From Bacillota bacterium (GTDB taxonomy: Bacteria > Bacillota > Sulfobacillia > Fermentithermobacillales > Fermentithermobacillaceae): 64,000 nucleotides of DNA. Made by a program: the position numbers and the translations under genes. Of the stretch, positions 4,270 through 11,914 are shown piece after piece (the first letter of the stretch is position 1; every line of letters begins with the position of its first letter). Location: contig JBMNKF010000007.1 of NCBI GenBank assembly GCA_050952065.1, positions 76,412 to 140,411 of the forward strand. Direction: 5' to 3'. The notes beneath the pieces were generated by a model. The model was not told the origin of the DNA. It made no database searches and worked only from the letters and a program-made list of their open reading frames with translations.

Positions 4270-5976
4270 TTGATGAGGTTTCTTGACGAATCCTGGATAC
4301 AGTCTGGTATTCTCAAGCGAAGGGCGAACTACTCGCCTATTCTGTGTTTCGAGACCGTGGATCCCAAGAGGATATATCAACTGAAGTCGTTCTTGCTGTC
4401 TTCGCCTGAATTTTCCCAGACGGAGCACTTCTTCCTGTACGACCCTTGGGAAGGTCTCGGCACGCTTCGAAAAGGTGTGGACGGTCCCCTCTTTGAGCCA
4501 TACCGAAAAAGGTCTTTAAGGGATACTCCCCTGACTTCTAGAATACGCCCGGAGGGCGGCATAGAGTTTGGTGCCTTGAAGAGTGTCTTGAAAGAGGTTG
4601 ACCCGTTCCTTAAGACTTCTCAGACTGTGTTCCTCCTCCAGAACGTTTCTGACGTGAGAGAAGCCGACACGGGGTTTCAGGCCGCTATGAGGGCGTGGGC
4701 TATCGATCCCAACATCTTGTCCAGAGGTTCCACCGTGATAATCTTGACCTCAGATGCCTCTCGCATCATGGACGATTTTACAAAGGAGTATGTTGTTGTC
4801 ATTGCCATTGACCCATCCACCAGCCAGGAGCGCGAGAGCCTTATCATGTCTGTCGGGAGAGAGTTGGGGGTAAGTCTTGACGAGTCCCGCTTGGAAAGCG
4901 CCGCGGTGGCTCTGTCGGGGCTCAACCTCCATCAAGTAGAGAGCATCCTACTCGAATCGTACCAGCGCGTCAAAGATTTCGAACCTGACATTATGAAAGA
5001 GCTCAAGTCAGAATTGGTGAAGCGGTCCGGAGTGCTGGAGGTTAGGGATCCGCAGTTCAGCTTCAAGGATATTGGCGGTTATCACGCCATCAAGGATTTC
5101 GTCTCGAAGTACATCATAAACGTCCTCAAAAGACCTGAAAAGGCCAGGCGTTTTGGCCTTGGCTTGCCCAAGGGCCTCTTGTTCTTCGGTCCCCCCGGGA
5201 CAGGGAAGAGCTTGTTTTCCAACGCTTTGGCAAGCGAAGTCCAGCTCCCGTTCATAAACCTGGTCACAGAAAACATCTATTCCAAGTGGTTGGGGGAGTC
5301 GGGCCAGAACATGAAAAACGCCATAATCATGGCGGAAAAGATGTCCCCGGCTATCGTTTTTGTTGACGAAATTGACAGATTCGGCAAAAGGACCGGCAGT
5401 TCTGCCGGTTCAGCTGAAGAAGAAACCCAGCGCGTGTTCTCGCAGTTCCTGGAGTGGTTGGGGCGACCAGACAGGGAAGCCATCATTGTTGGAACGACTA
5501 ATGTGCCAGAGCACCTCGATGAAGCTTTTCTCAGAGCGGGAAGATTCGACTACAAGATCCCCTTTCTATACCCGGGGCCTGAAGCGCGTCTGGAGATACT
5601 TCTTGTGCACCTTGGACTGTCGCCCGGTGGCAGGAGACCTCCGGTGCCTCTGGACATGAAGCCCGAAGATGTGCGCGGGTTCCTGATGGAGGCAGTTGTG
5701 CCCCTCACCAAGAATTTCTCTTGCGCGGAACTGGAAGAGCTGGTGACTAGGGCCAAGAGGATAAGTTTCGACAAAGACAGAGAGCATGTATCTGGTGATG
5801 ATCTAGTAACGGCCGCGACAACTTTTCGGATTGACTATTCGGCCCGCAGGCGAACGGTTGAGACTTGCATGATCCAGGCAAGACACTTTACCGATGATCA
5901 AACGTTCCTTGATGCTATTGAAGAAGAGAACAAAGTGTATGAGAATGGTGCTACATCTTCTAGAAATGAGGGATGA
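4270..5976 (+). CDS. Classical AAA-family ATPase (single AAA domain, CDC48/Vps4/FtsH-like clade) with unique ~270 aa N-terminal domain
   Basis: 568 aa. Walker A GPPGTGKS, Walker B VFVDEIDR, SRH region TTNVPEHLDEAFLRAGRFDYKIPF. TTG/ATG start after GGGAGG. Confidence 0.85.
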   Translation: MMRFLDESWIQSGILKRRANYSPILCFETVDPKRIYQLKSFLLSSPEFSQTEHFFLYDPWEGLGTLRKGVDGPLFEPYRKRSLRDTPLTSRIRPEGGIEFGALKSVLKEVDPFLKTSQTVFLLQNVSDVREADTGFQAAMRAWAIDPNILSRGSTVIILTSDASRIMDDFTKEYVVVIAIDPSTSQERESLIMSVGRELGVSLDESRLESAAVALSGLNLHQVESILLESYQRVKDFEPDIMKELKSELVKRSGVLEVRDPQFSFKDIGGYHAIKDFVSKYIINVLKRPEKARRFGLGLPKGLLFFGPPGTGKSLFSNALASEVQLPFINLVTENIYSKWLGESGQNMKNAIIMAEKMSPAIVFVDEIDRFGKRTGSSAGSAEEETQRVFSQFLEWLGRPDREAIIVGTTNVPEHLDEAFLRAGRFDYKIPFLYPGPEARLEILLVHLGLSPGGRRPPVPLDMKPEDVRGFLMEAVVPLTKNFSCAELEELVTRAKRISFDKDREHVSGDDLVTAATTFRIDYSARRRTVETCMIQARHFTDDQTFLDAIEEENKVYENGATSSRNEG

Positions 5977-5979
5977 GGC

Positions 5980-6210
5980 GTGAAGGCTAAGATAGAAGCT
6001 GCGCTCAACCAGATTCGCCCGTCATTACAGGCGGACGGCGGAGACGTCGAACTCGTTGATGTTTCCCAAGATGGCGTAGTCAAGGTCAAGCTTACCGGGG
6101 CTTGTGGAACCTGTCCCTTTGCTACAATGACTCTGAAAGCCGGGATCGAGAGAATCTTGAAAAAGGAGATCCCGGAAGTCAAAGAAGTCGTGGCGGTAGA
6201 TCCTACATAA
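5980..6210 (+). CDS. NifU-like (Nfu-type) Fe-S cluster domain protein
   Basis: 76 aa with GACGTCPFATMTLKAGIERIL containing the CxxC motif of the NifU C-terminal/Nfu domain. GTG start only 3 nt after the AAA ATPase stop, preceded by GAGGGATGAGG. Confidence 0.7.
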   Translation: MKAKIEAALNQIRPSLQADGGDVELVDVSQDGVVKVKLTGACGTCPFATMTLKAGIERILKKEIPEVKEVVAVDPT

Positions 6211-6552
6211 GAAAACCGTCAATCGTAGCGTAGGTTCAGGCACCGGGGTGTCCTGAACAGGGAATTCAATAGGGCCTTCGAGGAGGCTCGTCTTCGGTGG
6301 ATGAGCCTTCTACATTGATCCCTCGCTTTGATCCTTCGCATACAATTTGCTTGCGTCTAGTGTTCCGATGGCTGCCCGATTGCGGAAATGCATGTCCTGA
6401 TCCGGTTAGCTACAAAGCCGCCCTTCACACCCGAGTAGAGCCTGGCATATAGATGTTCTAGCCAAACGGCATTCTTTGTCTTCAACGAAAGGAGGGTAAT
6501 TGCTCTGGATACCCTCGAAGTCAAACGCGAAGAACTGCGGCTAGAAGAAGTA

Positions 6553-8097
6553 GTGGGGGAAGGGACTTCACAAGTAATCGTCAGTGAAGCCGTAACGGTG
6601 CCTGAGGAAAAACCCCCGGTTAGGGCGGTCATTGACTTTGTGGCGAGGACTAGGATAGACAAAGTCACGGTGTTGCCCGGCAAGGTGATTGTGGACGGTA
6701 CGGTGGACTTCGCCATCATCTACGAAGCTACTGTGGAGACTCAGACGGTTCACGTGTTTCATGCGGAGGTCAAGTTCAGTACGTTTGTGGAGATCCCAGG
6801 TGTCGAGCCTGGTATGACTGCGACCCCCACGCTTGCCATTGAGCACGCGGTCTTCCAGGTTAGCCCGGATGGAAGAACAATCACCATCCGAGCGGTCGCG
6901 GCCCTCTCGGTAAGAGTGACTCAGTCGGTGGTTATCGACGTCATAACGGACGTTTCGGGCCTGCCCGGACTCCAGGTCACCAAAGAGGTTGTGAAGGCTG
7001 AAACAGTGCTGGGTGAGGGAGAAGCCCAATACGTGGTACGGGAGAACTTGCAGATTCCCGACGCTAAGCCTGACGCGGCGCGAGTGATAGACTTCGTGTC
7101 GACCATACAGGTGAACTCCACCACAGTTCTGCCCAACAAGATAATAATCAACGGCACCATCAGCCTAAGGGTCATCTACGAAGCGGCCGTGCCCAGCCAG
7201 TCGGTTCACGTGGCTCACTTCACCATCCCCTTCGAAGCGTTTGTGGAAGTCCCGGGAGCGCAGCCGGGGATGGCGGTAATCGCGGCGGCTCAGGTTGAGT
7301 TCATCTCTATCGATGTGAATGCTACTGGTCGAGTGCTTCAGGTGAGGATCATTCTTAAGGTTACGGCAAAGGTCATCCGAGTCCAGAAGGTCCAGGTTGT
7401 GACCAACGTAGCCGGTATAGCAGATTTGGTGCTCTGGAAGGAGCTAATCAGGGTCCAAGAGGTCTTGGGTGAAAACAAATCTCAGGGGATCGTTCGAGAG
7501 ATTGTGGACGTTCCTGACGAGAAGCCATCTGTGGCTATGGTGATTGATTCCAGTTCTTCTCCGGAGGTCAAGAGAGTTATCGTGGCCCCAGGGAAAGTCA
7601 TCGTTGATGGCGCCATAGCTCAGAGGATCATCTATGAACCGCTGGATTGCCCGATGCAACAAGTGCATACGCTGCACTTTACGGTTCCTTTCTCCGAGTT
7701 TGTGGTGTTGCCAGAGGCTAAACCCGGCATGGTTGCCAGAGTGGATGTTCAGGTGGAACACGCCAATTTTGAGGTACCGCCTTCGGGAGATCCCGTTATG
7801 GCCACCAAAATCATCCAGCTCGTAGCAAGAGTGTTTAAGACCAGGGTCATCAATGTAGTGGTCAAGATTCAATTAGGCAAACCGAAACCCACCTGTACCG
7901 GTACAGTCACCGGGAACCTGGTTAACGTCAGGCAAGGTCCCGGAACCACCTATGCAGTTGTTGCCCAAGTCAATGCTGGTACGGTGGTCGCGGTACTGGA
8001 GTTCTCGCCCGATTGGGTTAAGGTAAGACTACCCAACGGAGTGGTGGGATGGATTTCCTCCGCATACTTGCGGCATGACTGCAAGCCGTTGGGGTAG
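6553..8097 (+). CDS. Secreted/spore-associated repeat protein: three ~125 aa DUF3794/SipL-like repeats plus C-terminal bacterial SH3 domain
   Basis: Internal repeats (VLGEG-x-Q-x-VV-x-E-x-V-PD-KP...V-x-VLP-KVI-x-G-x-IYEA...VH...F...F-x-FVE-PGA-PGM) recur three times. C-terminus GTVTGNLVNVRQGPGTTYAVVAQVNAGTVVAVLE...WVKVRLPNGVVGWISSAYL is SH3b-like. The true start is probably upstream of 6553 (see findings). Confidence 0.7.
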   Translation: MGEGTSQVIVSEAVTVPEEKPPVRAVIDFVARTRIDKVTVLPGKVIVDGTVDFAIIYEATVETQTVHVFHAEVKFSTFVEIPGVEPGMTATPTLAIEHAVFQVSPDGRTITIRAVAALSVRVTQSVVIDVITDVSGLPGLQVTKEVVKAETVLGEGEAQYVVRENLQIPDAKPDAARVIDFVSTIQVNSTTVLPNKIIINGTISLRVIYEAAVPSQSVHVAHFTIPFEAFVEVPGAQPGMAVIAAAQVEFISIDVNATGRVLQVRIILKVTAKVIRVQKVQVVTNVAGIADLVLWKELIRVQEVLGENKSQGIVREIVDVPDEKPSVAMVIDSSSSPEVKRVIVAPGKVIVDGAIAQRIIYEPLDCPMQQVHTLHFTVPFSEFVVLPEAKPGMVARVDVQVEHANFEVPPSGDPVMATKIIQLVARVFKTRVINVVVKIQLGKPKPTCTGTVTGNLVNVRQGPGTTYAVVAQVNAGTVVAVLEFSPDWVKVRLPNGVVGWISSAYLRHDCKPLG

Positions 8098-8409
8098 TAG
8101 AGGCGCCGGGGTAGCAATAGCAAAACTGAGGAAGCGATAGGCAGACTGACTGGAAGCCGACCAACGTGGTCGGCTTGGGGCCGGGCGATGCCAACAAGGT
8201 GTCCCCGGCCTCTGGTGTCTTGCCAGATGACACCAGTGACCAGATATTCCGCGCATATGTGACAATATTAGAGAGATCATCCTGCGTCAATATCTCAGAC
8301 TACTCATCCAGACCTATTTGTCCTGCTAGACAGGTTTTTGAAAGGGCTTACGATCATATATTATGTTTATGCACTCTGGTAGTTCGACCCAGGAAAGGAG
8401 AAGCAAGAC

Positions 8410-9222
8410 ATGGGAACCAAAAGAAAGGTAGCACTTACAGCGGTCCTGGTCCTGTCTTTGGTGCTTCTATCAGGAAGTGCCCTGGCCGGCGGCTATGCGC
8501 GGTACATGACGCCGGCTCCCGATGGAGGCACACTCTTCATCTTCACTCGAGGGTCTCGTGGCCTTGACCTCATTATGAGGCTTTTCTATGGGTTTGGTGC
8601 CTACCCGTGGGACTTCCTCAAGCCTGTCAGGCCAGACACGCCGCCTCTGCCTGCGGATCCAATCGAGGCTCCGGACCCCACTCCGGAGCCGGAGCCCGCT
8701 CCCGAGCCTGATCCGGTCCCAGACCCGGTGCCGGAACCAGAACCTGAACCTGAGCCGGAGCCTGTTCCAGAGCCTGATCCGGAGCCCGACACTGAACCCG
8801 AGAAACCGGCTTCCGAAGAAGAGCCCTCAACTCCCGGCCTTACTGATATGGAGCAAGGTATGGTGGATCTGGTGAACGAGGAGAGGGCGAAGGCAGGTCT
8901 TAAGCCTTTGGCAGTAGACATGAGATTGGTGGAACTAGCTCGAAAGAAGAGTCAGGATATGATCGACAAAGGATACTTCTCTCACAACTCGCCTACCTAC
9001 GGTTCGCCCTTTGACATGATGAAGGCAGCCGGCATTTCGTACCGGATGGCAGGAGAGAACCTGGCAGGGGCGCCCAGTCTCCAATCTGCTCACAAGGGGC
9101 TGATGGAGAGCGAAGGCCACAGACGGAACATACTCAACCCGGCTTTCGACCACATAGGAATAGGCATCATTCAGGGCGGCCCTTATGGCTACATGTTCAC
9201 GCAGATGTTTACAGGGCAGTAG
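8410..9222 (+). CDS. Secreted CAP/SCP/PR-1 (YkwD-type) domain protein with Pro/Glu-rich linker
   Basis: Signal peptide (KVALTAVLVLSLVLLSGSALA), (PE)n/(PEP)n linker, C-terminal CAP domain motifs (GYFSHNSP, GENLA, GHRRNIL, HIGIG). Confidence 0.75.
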   Translation: MGTKRKVALTAVLVLSLVLLSGSALAGGYARYMTPAPDGGTLFIFTRGSRGLDLIMRLFYGFGAYPWDFLKPVRPDTPPLPADPIEAPDPTPEPEPAPEPDPVPDPVPEPEPEPEPEPVPEPDPEPDTEPEKPASEEEPSTPGLTDMEQGMVDLVNEERAKAGLKPLAVDMRLVELARKKSQDMIDKGYFSHNSPTYGSPFDMMKAAGISYRMAGENLAGAPSLQSAHKGLMESEGHRRNILNPAFDHIGIGIIQGGPYGYMFTQMFTGQ

Positions 9223-9290: not shown

Positions 9291-9668
9291 TTAGTCTGTG
9301 CCCCGGACATAGTCTCGAAACACCCAGCCGAGTCTGCCGTCGTACAACTGCACTGCTGTCCAGTTGCCCCTCTTCTCTGTGAGGATGACAGGGGTACCCT
9401 TCTGCAGGACACTGAGCACGTAGGCCTGTGGGCTAGGAGACTCGCGGAAGTTTACATCGTCGTCGGTTATGGTGCCAAATCCTATGAACGTGTCTGGCAC
9501 TTTTCCGCTCTTCAGGAGCTTAAGCGTTTCGATCTCGAATCTTTTCTGCGTTAGAATCCGCTCCAAAAGCTGGCGACCGGTGCCTCCTGGCAGACGGCCT
9601 ATCAAGGCGTGGTACTGTTGCCTGGCATCCTCTTCTCTTTCCAGAAGTTCGGCTACAGTCTCATCCAT
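9291..9668 (-). CDS. Hypothetical protein with C-terminal bacterial SH3 domain
   Basis: 125 aa. C-terminal ...FRESPSPQAYVLSVLQKGTPVILTEKRGNWTAVQLYDGRLGWVFRDYV resembles SH3_3. N-terminal helical segment. Confidence 0.5.
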   Translation of the reverse strand: MDETVAELLEREEDARQQYHALIGRLPGGTGRQLLERILTQKRFEIETLKLLKSGKVPDTFIGFGTITDDDVNFRESPSPQAYVLSVLQKGTPVILTEKRGNWTAVQLYDGRLGWVFRDYVRGTD

Positions 9669-9819
9669 TGTCTTCGCCTCCTTACAGTCATCACACTATG
9701 CGCCCGATTTAGTAAACATGCCCAAGCTTCCGATTTGGCTTTATGACGCTGGTGGGCTGCTGATACAATCAATGTGACTGGTCACGAGTCAAAGGTTGAG
9801 GCCGGTTGACCGGGGGTGG

Positions 9820-10497
9820 ATGCGTTTGAAGATCTTAGTAGTAGACGATGATCAGGTACTGGTTAAAGGGCTCACTAGGAGCCTGTTGGCTGTTGGGCAC
9901 GAGGTTTGGGCATGCTTCGACGGGCAAGAGGCTATGACCAACATTGATTCTCTCAGCCCAGAAATGGTCATCCTGGACGTTATGCTTCCAGGCAAGGACG
10001 GGTTCGCTATATTGCAGGACATTCGCCGGCGCTATCCGGATCTTCCGGTGATCATGCTTACTGCAAGAGCCGAAGACATCGACAAAGTCCTCGGGTTGGA
10101 GATGGGGGCAGACGATTACATCTCTAAGCCATTCAGTGTCAGGGAGCTAGAGGCAAGGCTCAAGGCCTTGGCCAGGCGGCTAGGGCCAACAGGGGGTAAA
10201 GCGCAGGTTCGTAAGGGTGACCTTCTTCTGGATCTGGATGGACGGCGCGTGTGGAAAAGAGAGCGCGAGGTATACTTGACGCCTAAGGAGTTTGACGTTC
10301 TGGCTTTCTTGGTGAGGAACTCGGGTACTGTCATGACCCGGGAAAAACTGCTTGAACACTGCTGGGGTTATGATTTTTTTGGAGACACCAGGGCGGTGGA
10401 CATTCAGGTGTCGAGGCTGAGGGAGAAGATTGAGGACGATCCTCAGAAGCCGACGATTATTCTTACAAGGCGAGGAACGGGCTACTACTGTGAATAG
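9820..10497 (+). CDS. OmpR-family response regulator (REC + winged-helix)
   Basis: MRLKILVVDDD..., phospho-acceptor D in ILDVMLPGKDG, C-terminal trans_reg_C (VYLTPKEFDVLAFLVRNSGTVMTREKLLEHCWG). ATG 9820 after GGGGGTGG. The ORF-track start at TTG 9796 is less likely. Confidence 0.85.
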   Translation: MRLKILVVDDDQVLVKGLTRSLLAVGHEVWACFDGQEAMTNIDSLSPEMVILDVMLPGKDGFAILQDIRRRYPDLPVIMLTARAEDIDKVLGLEMGADDYISKPFSVRELEARLKALARRLGPTGGKAQVRKGDLLLDLDGRRVWKREREVYLTPKEFDVLAFLVRNSGTVMTREKLLEHCWGYDFFGDTRAVDIQVSRLREKIEDDPQKPTIILTRRGTGYYCE

Positions 10498-11914
10498 GTT
10501 TGTCAGGCGCCTGAGTGTAAGATGGCATCTTGCCCTGACGTATCTTCTGATTATCTGGGTTACCCTTGCTGTCCTAATGTGGGTGTTTGCCAGAAGCCTG
10601 GAAAAATCGGGGTTGGACGGGCGTAAAGCATATCTGTACGCTCAAGCTCATTTCCTGGCTTCAGCCATTGAATCCAGGGGCGGTCCCGACAGAGCATCCA
10701 TAGCCTCGGTCGGGGGAATCCCCGCGAGAGGTCGGGTCTTGGTAATAGATGATAGAGGAGTGGTGTTGCAGGATTCGGCAGCTGACCCGGATATTCTGGG
10801 AAAGGATCTATCGGGACTGTCGGAAGTTAGAGGCGCCCTGAGTGGTGAACAGATGGCCAACACCTATTACTTGGAAGACGGCACCTATGTTATGTATCTG
10901 GCTGTTCCAGGCGTTTGGGGTTCTGGCACGGGCGCCATATTCATATCCCAGGATCTGAACGACATCTTGAGCCAACATAGGAGCCTTATGAGGGCTGTGA
11001 TCTTGGGAGGGATTGCGGCTTCGCTTGCTGCACTGCTGGTGGCCTGGGTCCTGGCGGGAGTGGTAACGGGTCCTATCACCGAGATGGAGACCACTGCAAG
11101 GAGGATGTCCGCCGGTAGGCTTGACCTTAGAGTGAAGCCGGGCGGCCCCAGAGAAACCAGGATGCTGGCTGAGTCTTTCAACTCCATGGCACGAGGGATT
11201 GGGGAGTCTCTCAAGAGGCAACAGGAGTTCCTGTTGGCTGCTGCCCATGATCTCAGGTCCCCTCTGGCGGCTGTGAGGGTGCTGGTTGAGTCGATGCAGA
11301 TGAAAGCGCCTAACCAAGACGAATTGCCTGAGCTTCTATTGGATATCCGAGGCGAAGTTGACCGGACAATTAGGACCACCGAAGGCATCTTGAACTTACT
11401 CAGGACGGAAGGGCAGTTTCCGGAGGACACTGTCGACCCGCGGGAGATACTGCACGAACTGGTGGAGACGAGGTCGAAGACAGCGGTTGGGGTGACTGTC
11501 ACTCTGAAATCCGATTCGGGTAAGTGTCGCATGAGTGCTTTGGCTCTACGCCTAGTGGCCGCCAATCTACTGGAGAACGCCATAAGGTATTCGCTTCCAG
11601 GCGGACAAGTGGACGTGGAGTGCAGTATACAGGGGAGTGACCTTGTGTTGGTGGTGAAAGACTGCGGTATAGGAATAGACCCCAAGTACATACCCAGGAT
11701 ATTCGACCGTTTCTATAGGGTGGACGAGGCCCGGCAAAAGTCTACGGGCGGTGCGGGGCTGGGCTTGGCGATTGTCAAGGAGGTTTGCGACAGGACCAAT
11801 GCCACCATAAGCGTGGAGAGTGCTCCCGGCCAAGGCTCGACCTTCACTGTGAAGTGGGCCGCGTGCGGGACTGAGGAAACCCCGGAAAACCCTGACAGTC
11901 GTCTGGAACCCTGA
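10490..11914 (+). CDS. Sensor histidine kinase (TM-sensor-TM, HAMP, HisKA, HATPase_c)
   Basis: H-box AAAHDLRSPLAAV, N-box LLENAIRYS, G boxes DCGIGIDP and GGAGLGLAIVK. GTG 10490 overlaps the RR stop by 8 nt (coupled pair). Confidence 0.85.
   Translation: MNRFVRRLSVRWHLALTYLLIIWVTLAVLMWVFARSLEKSGLDGRKAYLYAQAHFLASAIESRGGPDRASIASVGGIPARGRVLVIDDRGVVLQDSAADPDILGKDLSGLSEVRGALSGEQMANTYYLEDGTYVMYLAVPGVWGSGTGAIFISQDLNDILSQHRSLMRAVILGGIAASLAALLVAWVLAGVVTGPITEMETTARRMSAGRLDLRVKPGGPRETRMLAESFNSMARGIGESLKRQQEFLLAAAHDLRSPLAAVRVLVESMQMKAPNQDELPELLLDIRGEVDRTIRTTEGILNLLRTEGQFPEDTVDPREILHELVETRSKTAVGVTVTLKSDSGKCRMSALALRLVAANLLENAIRYSLPGGQVDVECSIQGSDLVLVVKDCGIGIDPKYIPRIFDRFYRVDEARQKSTGGAGLGLAIVKEVCDRTNATISVESAPGQGSTFTVKWAACGTEETPENPDSRLEP

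Follow-up and report, generated by a model that had tools for sequence, protein, structure and literature searches.

The window analysed here is the whole stretch of 64,000 nucleotides (64 kb) taken from contig JBMNKF010000007.1 of a Bacillota bacterium from an uncultured thermophilic lineage (Fermentithermobacillaceae; GenBank assembly GCA_050952065.1, positions 76,412 to 140,411 of the forward strand). The gene under study encodes a protein with three tandem SPOCS repeats (SPOCS stands for SpoVID-CotE-SipL; bioRxiv 10.64898/2026.09.03.749163) and a C-terminal SH3b domain. It carries a strong Shine–Dalgarno (SD) sequence and lacks a canonical start codon behind it; translation probably starts at CTG 6505, which would give a protein of 530 aa. 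The following features were assigned to the locus (window coordinates; evidence in brackets).

6424–6429, forward strand: predicted −35 element TTCACA of a sigma-K-like mother-cell promoter (conservation, likeness to SigK boxes)
6445–6454, forward strand: predicted −10 element GCATATAGAT (invariant columns GCATAT, A and AT in 35 orthologues)
6487–6496, forward strand: SD sequence GAAAGGAGGG, which includes AGGAGGG at 6490–6496
6497–6504, forward strand: spacer TAATTGCT of 8 nt, which holds ATT 6499 (in frame) and TTG 6500 (+1 frame)
6505–6507, forward strand: proposed initiation codon CTG, read as formylmethionine (fMet) (invariance in clade A, SD spacing, periodicity)
6505–8097, forward strand: proposed coding sequence, 530 codons plus the stop codon TAG 8095–8097 (orthologue lengths, N-terminal coverage)
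6505–6969, forward strand: SPOCS repeat 1 (PF12673, repeat alignment)
6553–6555, forward strand: GTG of the 514-aa gene-finder model (P0001, P0002), rejected as the start codon
6970–7431, forward strand: SPOCS repeat 2 (PF12673, repeat alignment, motif position)
7432–7890, forward strand: SPOCS repeat 3 (PF12673, repeat alignment, motif position)
7921–8070, forward strand: C-terminal SH3b domain, SH3_3/SH3_4 (Pfam, solved SH3b relatives)

The reading frame that contains GTG 6553 (forward strand) is preceded by the stop codon TAG 6436–6438 and is open from 6439 to TAG 8095–8097. Past the SD sequence it reads GTA 6496, ATT 6499, GCT 6502 and CTG 6505, followed by GAT. No in-frame ATG, GTG or TTG was found between the SD sequence and the conserved coding sequence; the first one is GTG 6553. 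An earlier note on this DNA, made from the sequence alone, had reported that a canonical start was missing after a strong SD sequence, and the frame, the SD sequence and the position of GTG 6553 were confirmed. For the genes of the window, the spacing from GGAGG to the start codon peaks at 7–10 nt; the distance is 9 nt for CTG 6505, 3 nt for ATT 6499 and 4 nt for TTG 6500, which is out of frame.

Pfam analysis identified PF12673 (SipL/SPOCS, DUF3794) in three stretches of the protein (182 bits against a cut-off of 23.6) and SH3_3/SH3_4 at the C-terminus (SH3_3: 60.7 bits, E=1.6e-16, residues 475–524 counted from 6499). The three repeats begin at 6505, 6970 and 7432, are about 153–155 aa long (the earlier note had given approximately 125 aa) and are mutually 37–43% identical. 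The motif PGxxPGM (PEAKPGM in repeat 3), previously placed at the repeat ends, was located about 100 residues into each repeat, at nucleotides 6796, 7252 and 7711. The first residues of repeat 1, LEVKREELRLEEVVGEG, align with LQVTKEVVKAETVLGEG of repeat 2 and LWKELIRVQEVLGEN of repeat 3. An AlphaFold2 model based on 41 sequences (mean predicted local distance difference test, pLDDT, 84) shows residues 7–33 (from 6499) as one beta-strand of 27 residues, equivalent to the strands 159–185 and 310–336. GTG 6553 is residue 19 and falls in the middle of this strand (E7–33), so that the first long beta-strand would lose 16 conserved residues in the 514-aa model. Structural relatives were found for the SH3b domain (2kq8, a cell wall hydrolase, E=2.6e-8; 2krs, TMt 0.70); for the SPOCS part, neither the sequence search nor Foldseek gave a solved structure, all matches being to SH3b. 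No LysM domain was detected in the protein by Pfam or by the solved-structure search. The gene product probably has an assembly or structural role in the spore envelope and would be built as a SipL-like single-chain pseudo-trimer; the SH3b domain, instead of LysM, would serve as its anchoring module.

The same gene was found in two independent assemblies, Logan SRR13001968 (contig of 7.3 kb) and JGI 3300064082 (contig of 4.7 kb); each showed one mismatch to the window over about 2.2 kb, and both were fully identical to it in the start region. Homologues of the protein numbered 85 at E <= 1e-10. Close homologues derive from Candidatus Fermentithermobacillaceae and metagenome-assembled genomes of the class DTU015, mainly from anaerobic digesters; sporulation has been predicted for this lineage (PMC10215811). 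Orthologous proteins measure 528–542 aa and cover the N-terminus of the query.

Related loci were fetched (109, plus 5 via exact protein look-up) and their start regions were codon-aligned. A neighbour-joining tree of the close orthologues gave two groups, clade A and clade B plus L112. Clade A is monophyletic and comprises the window and 16 loci (L001–L006, L008–L011, L019, L037, L079, L083, L084 and L111). The canonical start was also missing in these 16 orthologous loci of Fermentithermobacillaceae (class DTU015). Because it is common to the clade-A loci, the missing canonical start is a heritable trait of the clade, present in at least ten species-level genomes. The proposal of the earlier note that a rare initiator is needed is upheld by these loci, and CTG 6505 is one of the two candidates that it had named. 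Counted from the CTG column, the 16 full-length clade-A open reading frames (ORFs) are intact and 530–533 aa long; the stored L037 locus is truncated. Purifying selection acts throughout the gene, with identities within the clade of down to about 70%.

The start regions of the two groups differ in length. Clade B and L112 have the layout GGAGGG TAACGG TTG xxx CTG GAT ACC CTC, in which a canonical TTG (in L022, GTG) stands 7 nt past GGAGG, and all of the farther SH3-type orthologues have ATG, GTG or TTG 6–8 nt past the SD sequence. The clade-A layout (GAAAGGAGGG, NN, six further nucleotides and then CTG GAT ACC) is 4 nt shorter than that of clade B. Within the 17 clade-A sequences, positions −18 to −9 from CTG, which make up the SD sequence, are invariant except for one G in place of A in L037. 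The eight spacer positions all vary (entropy 0.5–1.9 bits), second codon positions included, and no three-base periodicity was detected in them from per-site entropy over the 17 sequences. The CTG column follows with an entropy of 0, 0 and 0, unchanged in 17/17 sequences. Over the next 15 codons, all of which lie before the GTG 6553 column, the entropy is 0.41 bits at the first codon position, 0.19 at the second and 0.93 at the third; as the first two are conserved and the third varies, coding periodicity begins directly past CTG.

This invariance is at the level of the codon. Leucine is invariant in 14 columns of clade A, 13 of which use three to six Leu codons; only the column at 6505 has a single one. 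Over the whole protein, single-codon columns amount to 2 of the 224 invariant degenerate columns, the CTG column being one of the two. Clade B plus L112 served as the control: here it is TTG/GTG that is conserved, and the CTG column varies among CTG, CTC, ATA and GTG. No conserved canonical start was found either upstream or downstream of CTG in the orthologues. CTG 6505 has what is expected of a near-cognate start, namely conservation among orthologues at a functional SD spacing in a gene with no canonical codon between the SD sequence and the conserved coding part.

Further upstream, (G/T)TCACA was found at a constant distance in nearly all of the 35 orthologous upstream regions, the flanks of which could not be aligned. 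The second conserved block, 15 nt on, reads GCATATA(G/A)AT in the orthologues, and the promoter architecture in the window is TTCACA-N15-GCATATAGAT. B. subtilis sigma-K promoters have the layout AC-N17-CATA, and the spacing found here fits it. For C. difficile, SigK promoters carry CTCACA or GTAACA as −35 and a CATATA-type −10, and SigE promoters carry GAATA-type −35 boxes (PMC7438776 Table S6). The −35 element TTCACA is closer to the SigK than to the SigE boxes, and the −10 element is of the CATATA type that is typical of mother-cell sigma factors. Sigma-K can be preferred to sigma-E only tentatively, and it is safer to speak of a mother-cell sporulation promoter. No sigma-70-like promoter was found upstream of the gene. 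Transcription is predicted to start at about 6460–6463, which would leave a 5′ untranslated region of about 42–45 nt up to CTG. As the promoter motif occurs only once in the window, no regulon can be inferred locally.

Two RNA structures were considered for the start region and rejected. An SD-sequestering hairpin (GAGGGTA 6492–6498 with TACCCTC 6510–6516) had a local z of −0.58, and a 121-nt stem-loop at 6440–6560, which encloses the SD sequence and the start, was stable as a single sequence (−40.5 kcal/mol, z = −3.16) but was not conserved. RNAalifold gave no consensus structure for the 35 orthologues, pair and covariation counts for the start region were equal to those of shuffled controls, and no Rfam match was obtained in 6150–6650. 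Past the stop codon, hairpin-forming inverted repeats were read by eye in the region 8154–8238 (forward strand), AAGCCGACC/GGTCGGCTT at 8154–8176 and CTGGTGTC/GACACCAG at about 8212–8237; neither is followed by a U tract.

The other initiator named in the earlier note, ATT 6499 (AUU, as in infC), would give a protein of 532 aa that begins MALDTLEV. Its column is homologous to the TTG/ATG start of the sister groups and reads ATT, ATA or ATC in 9/17 clade-A sequences. ATT is present in the window and L019, ATA in L001, L004–L006 and L077, and ATC in L037; ATG at this column is limited to one nested subclade (L011, L083, L023, L024, L030 and L078). CUG, AUA, AUC and AUU are the best non-canonical initiators in E. 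coli, with about 1–2% of the activity of AUG (Hecht et al., bioRxiv 10.1101/063800). However, the column also reads ACG (L008–L010, L079), ACT (L084), TTA (L002, L003) and AAC (L111). None of its three codon positions is constant, and the next codon varies at its second position, which argues that neither a coding nor an initiator constraint acts there. With its 3-nt distance from GGAGG, well short of the peak in the window, ATT 6499 is the weaker candidate, and a start at this codon is considered unlikely.

A start at GTG 6553, as called by the gene finders, would leave the conservation upstream of it non-coding. GTG 6553 is the first canonical in-frame start and is used in the public models P0001 and P0002. 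Against this, codons 6508–6552 vary at the third position and are conserved at the first and second, match the beginnings of repeats 2 and 3 in the alignment and form part of a confidently modelled beta-strand. The GTG 6553 column contains GTG, GTA, GTT or CTG in the orthologues, and the first downstream canonical start occurs at codon +10 to +29, differing among loci. No SD sequence lies ahead of GTG 6553, whereas an invariant one is found 57 nt upstream. The earlier note had allowed that orthologues might start at the equivalent of this GTG; none of them conserves a start there. A GTG start is accordingly very unlikely, and the N-terminal segment LDTLEVKREELRLEEV must be translated, as had been suspected; periodicity, repeat alignment and structure agree on this point.

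Loss of the canonical start in clade A might also mean that the gene is decaying and its expression gone. The 16 full-length ORFs are intact, however, purifying selection persists even though identity falls to about 70%, and the SD sequence and the promoter are still invariant, so that decay is most improbable. In a further reading, which takes up an issue raised in the earlier note, a true TTG 6500 start has been put out of frame by an indel from assembly or sequencing or by programmed frameshifting. This start would lie 4 nt past the SD sequence (one added G gives TTG GCT CTG, MALDTLEV). The reading has next to no likelihood: the two independent assemblies are identical at this site, the same trait recurs in 16 loci, the other clade-A loci have no TTG there and there is no slippery sequence. 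Sequencing error is excluded by the assemblies and the 16 loci. Frameshifting from TTG 6500 was ruled out, as the out-of-frame TTG is not conserved. This TTG opens a 14-codon ORF in the +1 frame (6500–6544, MLWIPSKSNAKNCG*), which is probably incidental because, among the clade-A loci, TTG occurs at this position in the window and L019 only.

Extension of the frame upstream was rejected as well: in the window it ends at TAG 6436 with no later start, and it would read through the promoter and the SD sequence. Upstream starts of relatives lie at non-homologous positions and are absent in the window, L004 and L037. Several clade-A orthologues have the frame open for 50–98 codons upstream of CTG, across the promoter (rough chance estimate, about 20); no conserved start or coding periodicity was found in this open frame.

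The following points weigh against the CTG start and the promoter assignment as given here. CUG is a poor initiator in E. coli. The adjacent codons ACC CTC likewise show unusual conservation at their synonymous sites, so that the invariance of CTG could owe something to a constraint on the nucleotides of the 5′ mRNA end that is unrelated to initiation. The nested subclade mentioned above has its ATG 3 nt past AGGAGG, and this position may be usable. The choice of sigma-K over sigma-E draws only on similarity to the C. difficile and B. subtilis consensus sequences.

Initiation at CTG 6505 could proceed as follows. The 30S subunit would be placed by a perfect SD sequence of 9–10 nt, GAAAGGAGGG, 9 nt upstream of CTG, and the initiator tRNA would decode CTG as fMet. 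As CUG is a weak initiator, the strong SD sequence presumably gives a modest protein output, which may be sensitive to initiation factor 3 (IF3). The simplest history that we infer is a deletion of about 4 nt between the SD sequence and the third codon in the ancestor of the clade. It would have removed the old TTG start and, at the same time, reduced the 13 nt between the SD sequence and the in-frame CTG to 9 nt, the optimal spacing; CTG would have been retained since then across at least ten species-level lineages.

It is doubtful that the CUG start is a selected regulatory device rather than a mere scar and that, together with the exchange of LysM for SH3b, it marks a distinct, late-acting (sigma-K) spore-envelope organiser of DTU015. 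By analogy with the AUU start of infC, a weak initiator discriminated against by IF3, in combination with a maximal SD sequence, might couple synthesis to a late translational state of the mother cell. Alternatively, the CUG start might set a low stoichiometry relative to partner proteins.

The public models of the clade-A orthologues (P0001–P0027) are mutually incompatible. Some begin with M-x-LDTLEV, others, which are truncated, set in at a GTG or TTG farther downstream (VGEG..., MEEVVGEG...), and many run upstream through a translated ribosome-binding site ('...ERRVTNLDTLEV', where ERRV corresponds to GAA AGG AGG GTA). One public model starts at a GTG that abuts AGGAGG. The models are wrong in several ways because gene finders cannot call CTG starts; truncation by 10–29 codons or extension through the ribosome-binding site amounts to a systematic annotation failure, by which the wrong N-terminus of a structural repeat protein enters databases and structure predictions. 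The locus would provide a natural bacterial gene without a canonical start that has long persisted on CUG, with intermediate states in sister lineages. A new kind of mechanism is not indicated; the locus would offer a natural CUG start that is conserved and whose origin can be traced. A three-SPOCS, SipL-like protein with SH3b also bears on the anchoring of spore-envelope scaffolds in Bacillota classes that have been little studied.

The following features were assigned around the gene.

4270–5976, forward strand: AAA+ ATPase of the classical clade, 568 aa, upstream of the SPOCS–SH3b gene
5980–6210, forward strand: NifU-domain protein, 76 aa, upstream of the SPOCS–SH3b gene
8410–9222, forward strand: CAP-domain protein, TIGR02909 spore_YkwD (180.9 bits, cut-off 171), downstream gene
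9291–9668, reverse strand: 125-aa protein with a C-terminal SH3_3 domain
9796–11914, forward strand: response-regulator ORF (9796–10497) and histidine-kinase ORF (10430–11914)

The order ATPase–NifU–SPOCS–SH3b is kept in the three loci that were checked (L110–L112). Assignment of the ATPase as SpoVK was rejected; it matches PAN, FtsH and CDC48-type models instead. The spore_YkwD protein has an N-terminal hydrophobic segment and a long linker rich in Pro, Glu and Asp (PEPEPEPEP...). The 125-aa protein adds a further SH3b protein to the locus, within 1.2 kb of the SPOCS–SH3b one. The response-regulator and histidine-kinase ORFs overlap by 68 nt at the longest-ORF start of the kinase, which probably starts farther downstream.

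Natural near-cognate starts include AUU of E. coli infC and annotated CTG, ATT, ATC and ATA starts. The gene described here likewise has no canonical start, a strong SD sequence and a codon that is conserved among orthologues. Unlike the infC type, its CTG start would have arisen by deletion of an ancestral TTG, and autoregulation is not known here.

SpoVID of B. subtilis has a single N-terminal SPOCS domain, a region A and a C-terminal LysM domain; the window protein has three SPOCS repeats and SH3b, with no LysM. It shares the SPOCS fold family PF12673 and a probable association with the spore envelope with SpoVID and CotE (B. subtilis) and with the clostridial proteins CsxA, CsxC and CdeC. 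CsxA and CsxC are single-domain, cysteine-rich proteins that are predicted to form trimers (bioRxiv 10.64898/2026.09.03.749163), whereas in the window protein three repeats are fused and cysteines are few.

A close comparison is with the spore-coat morphogenetic protein SipL (CD3567) of C. difficile, which likewise carries three SPOCS/DUF3794 domains in tandem on a single chain of about 520–530 aa and is described as a single-chain pseudo-trimer, a pseudo-threefold tripod (bioRxiv 10.64898/2026.09.03.749163). Homologues with three SPOCS domains and LysM are about 30% identical to the window protein over about 93–95% of its length. Both proteins have a small C-terminal binding domain and both appear, from promoter sequence in the case of the window gene, to be expressed in the mother cell. 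They differ in this C-terminal domain, which is LysM in SipL and SH3b here, in the −35 element, which in the window looks like that of sigma-K and not of sigma-E promoters, and in the non-canonical start. SipL-type proteins depend on sigma-E for their mother-cell expression, interact with SpoIVA and are needed for coat localisation. The LysM domain of SipL binds SpoIVA and is essential (PMC6436350). The label SipL/SpoVID-type, given in the earlier note, holds for the SPOCS fold and the three-repeat layout and fails for the LysM domain. As SH3b replaces the SpoIVA-binding LysM domain, the protein should not be filed as SipL; it is better described as a SipL-like SPOCS scaffold that would carry a different anchoring module and is possibly expressed later.

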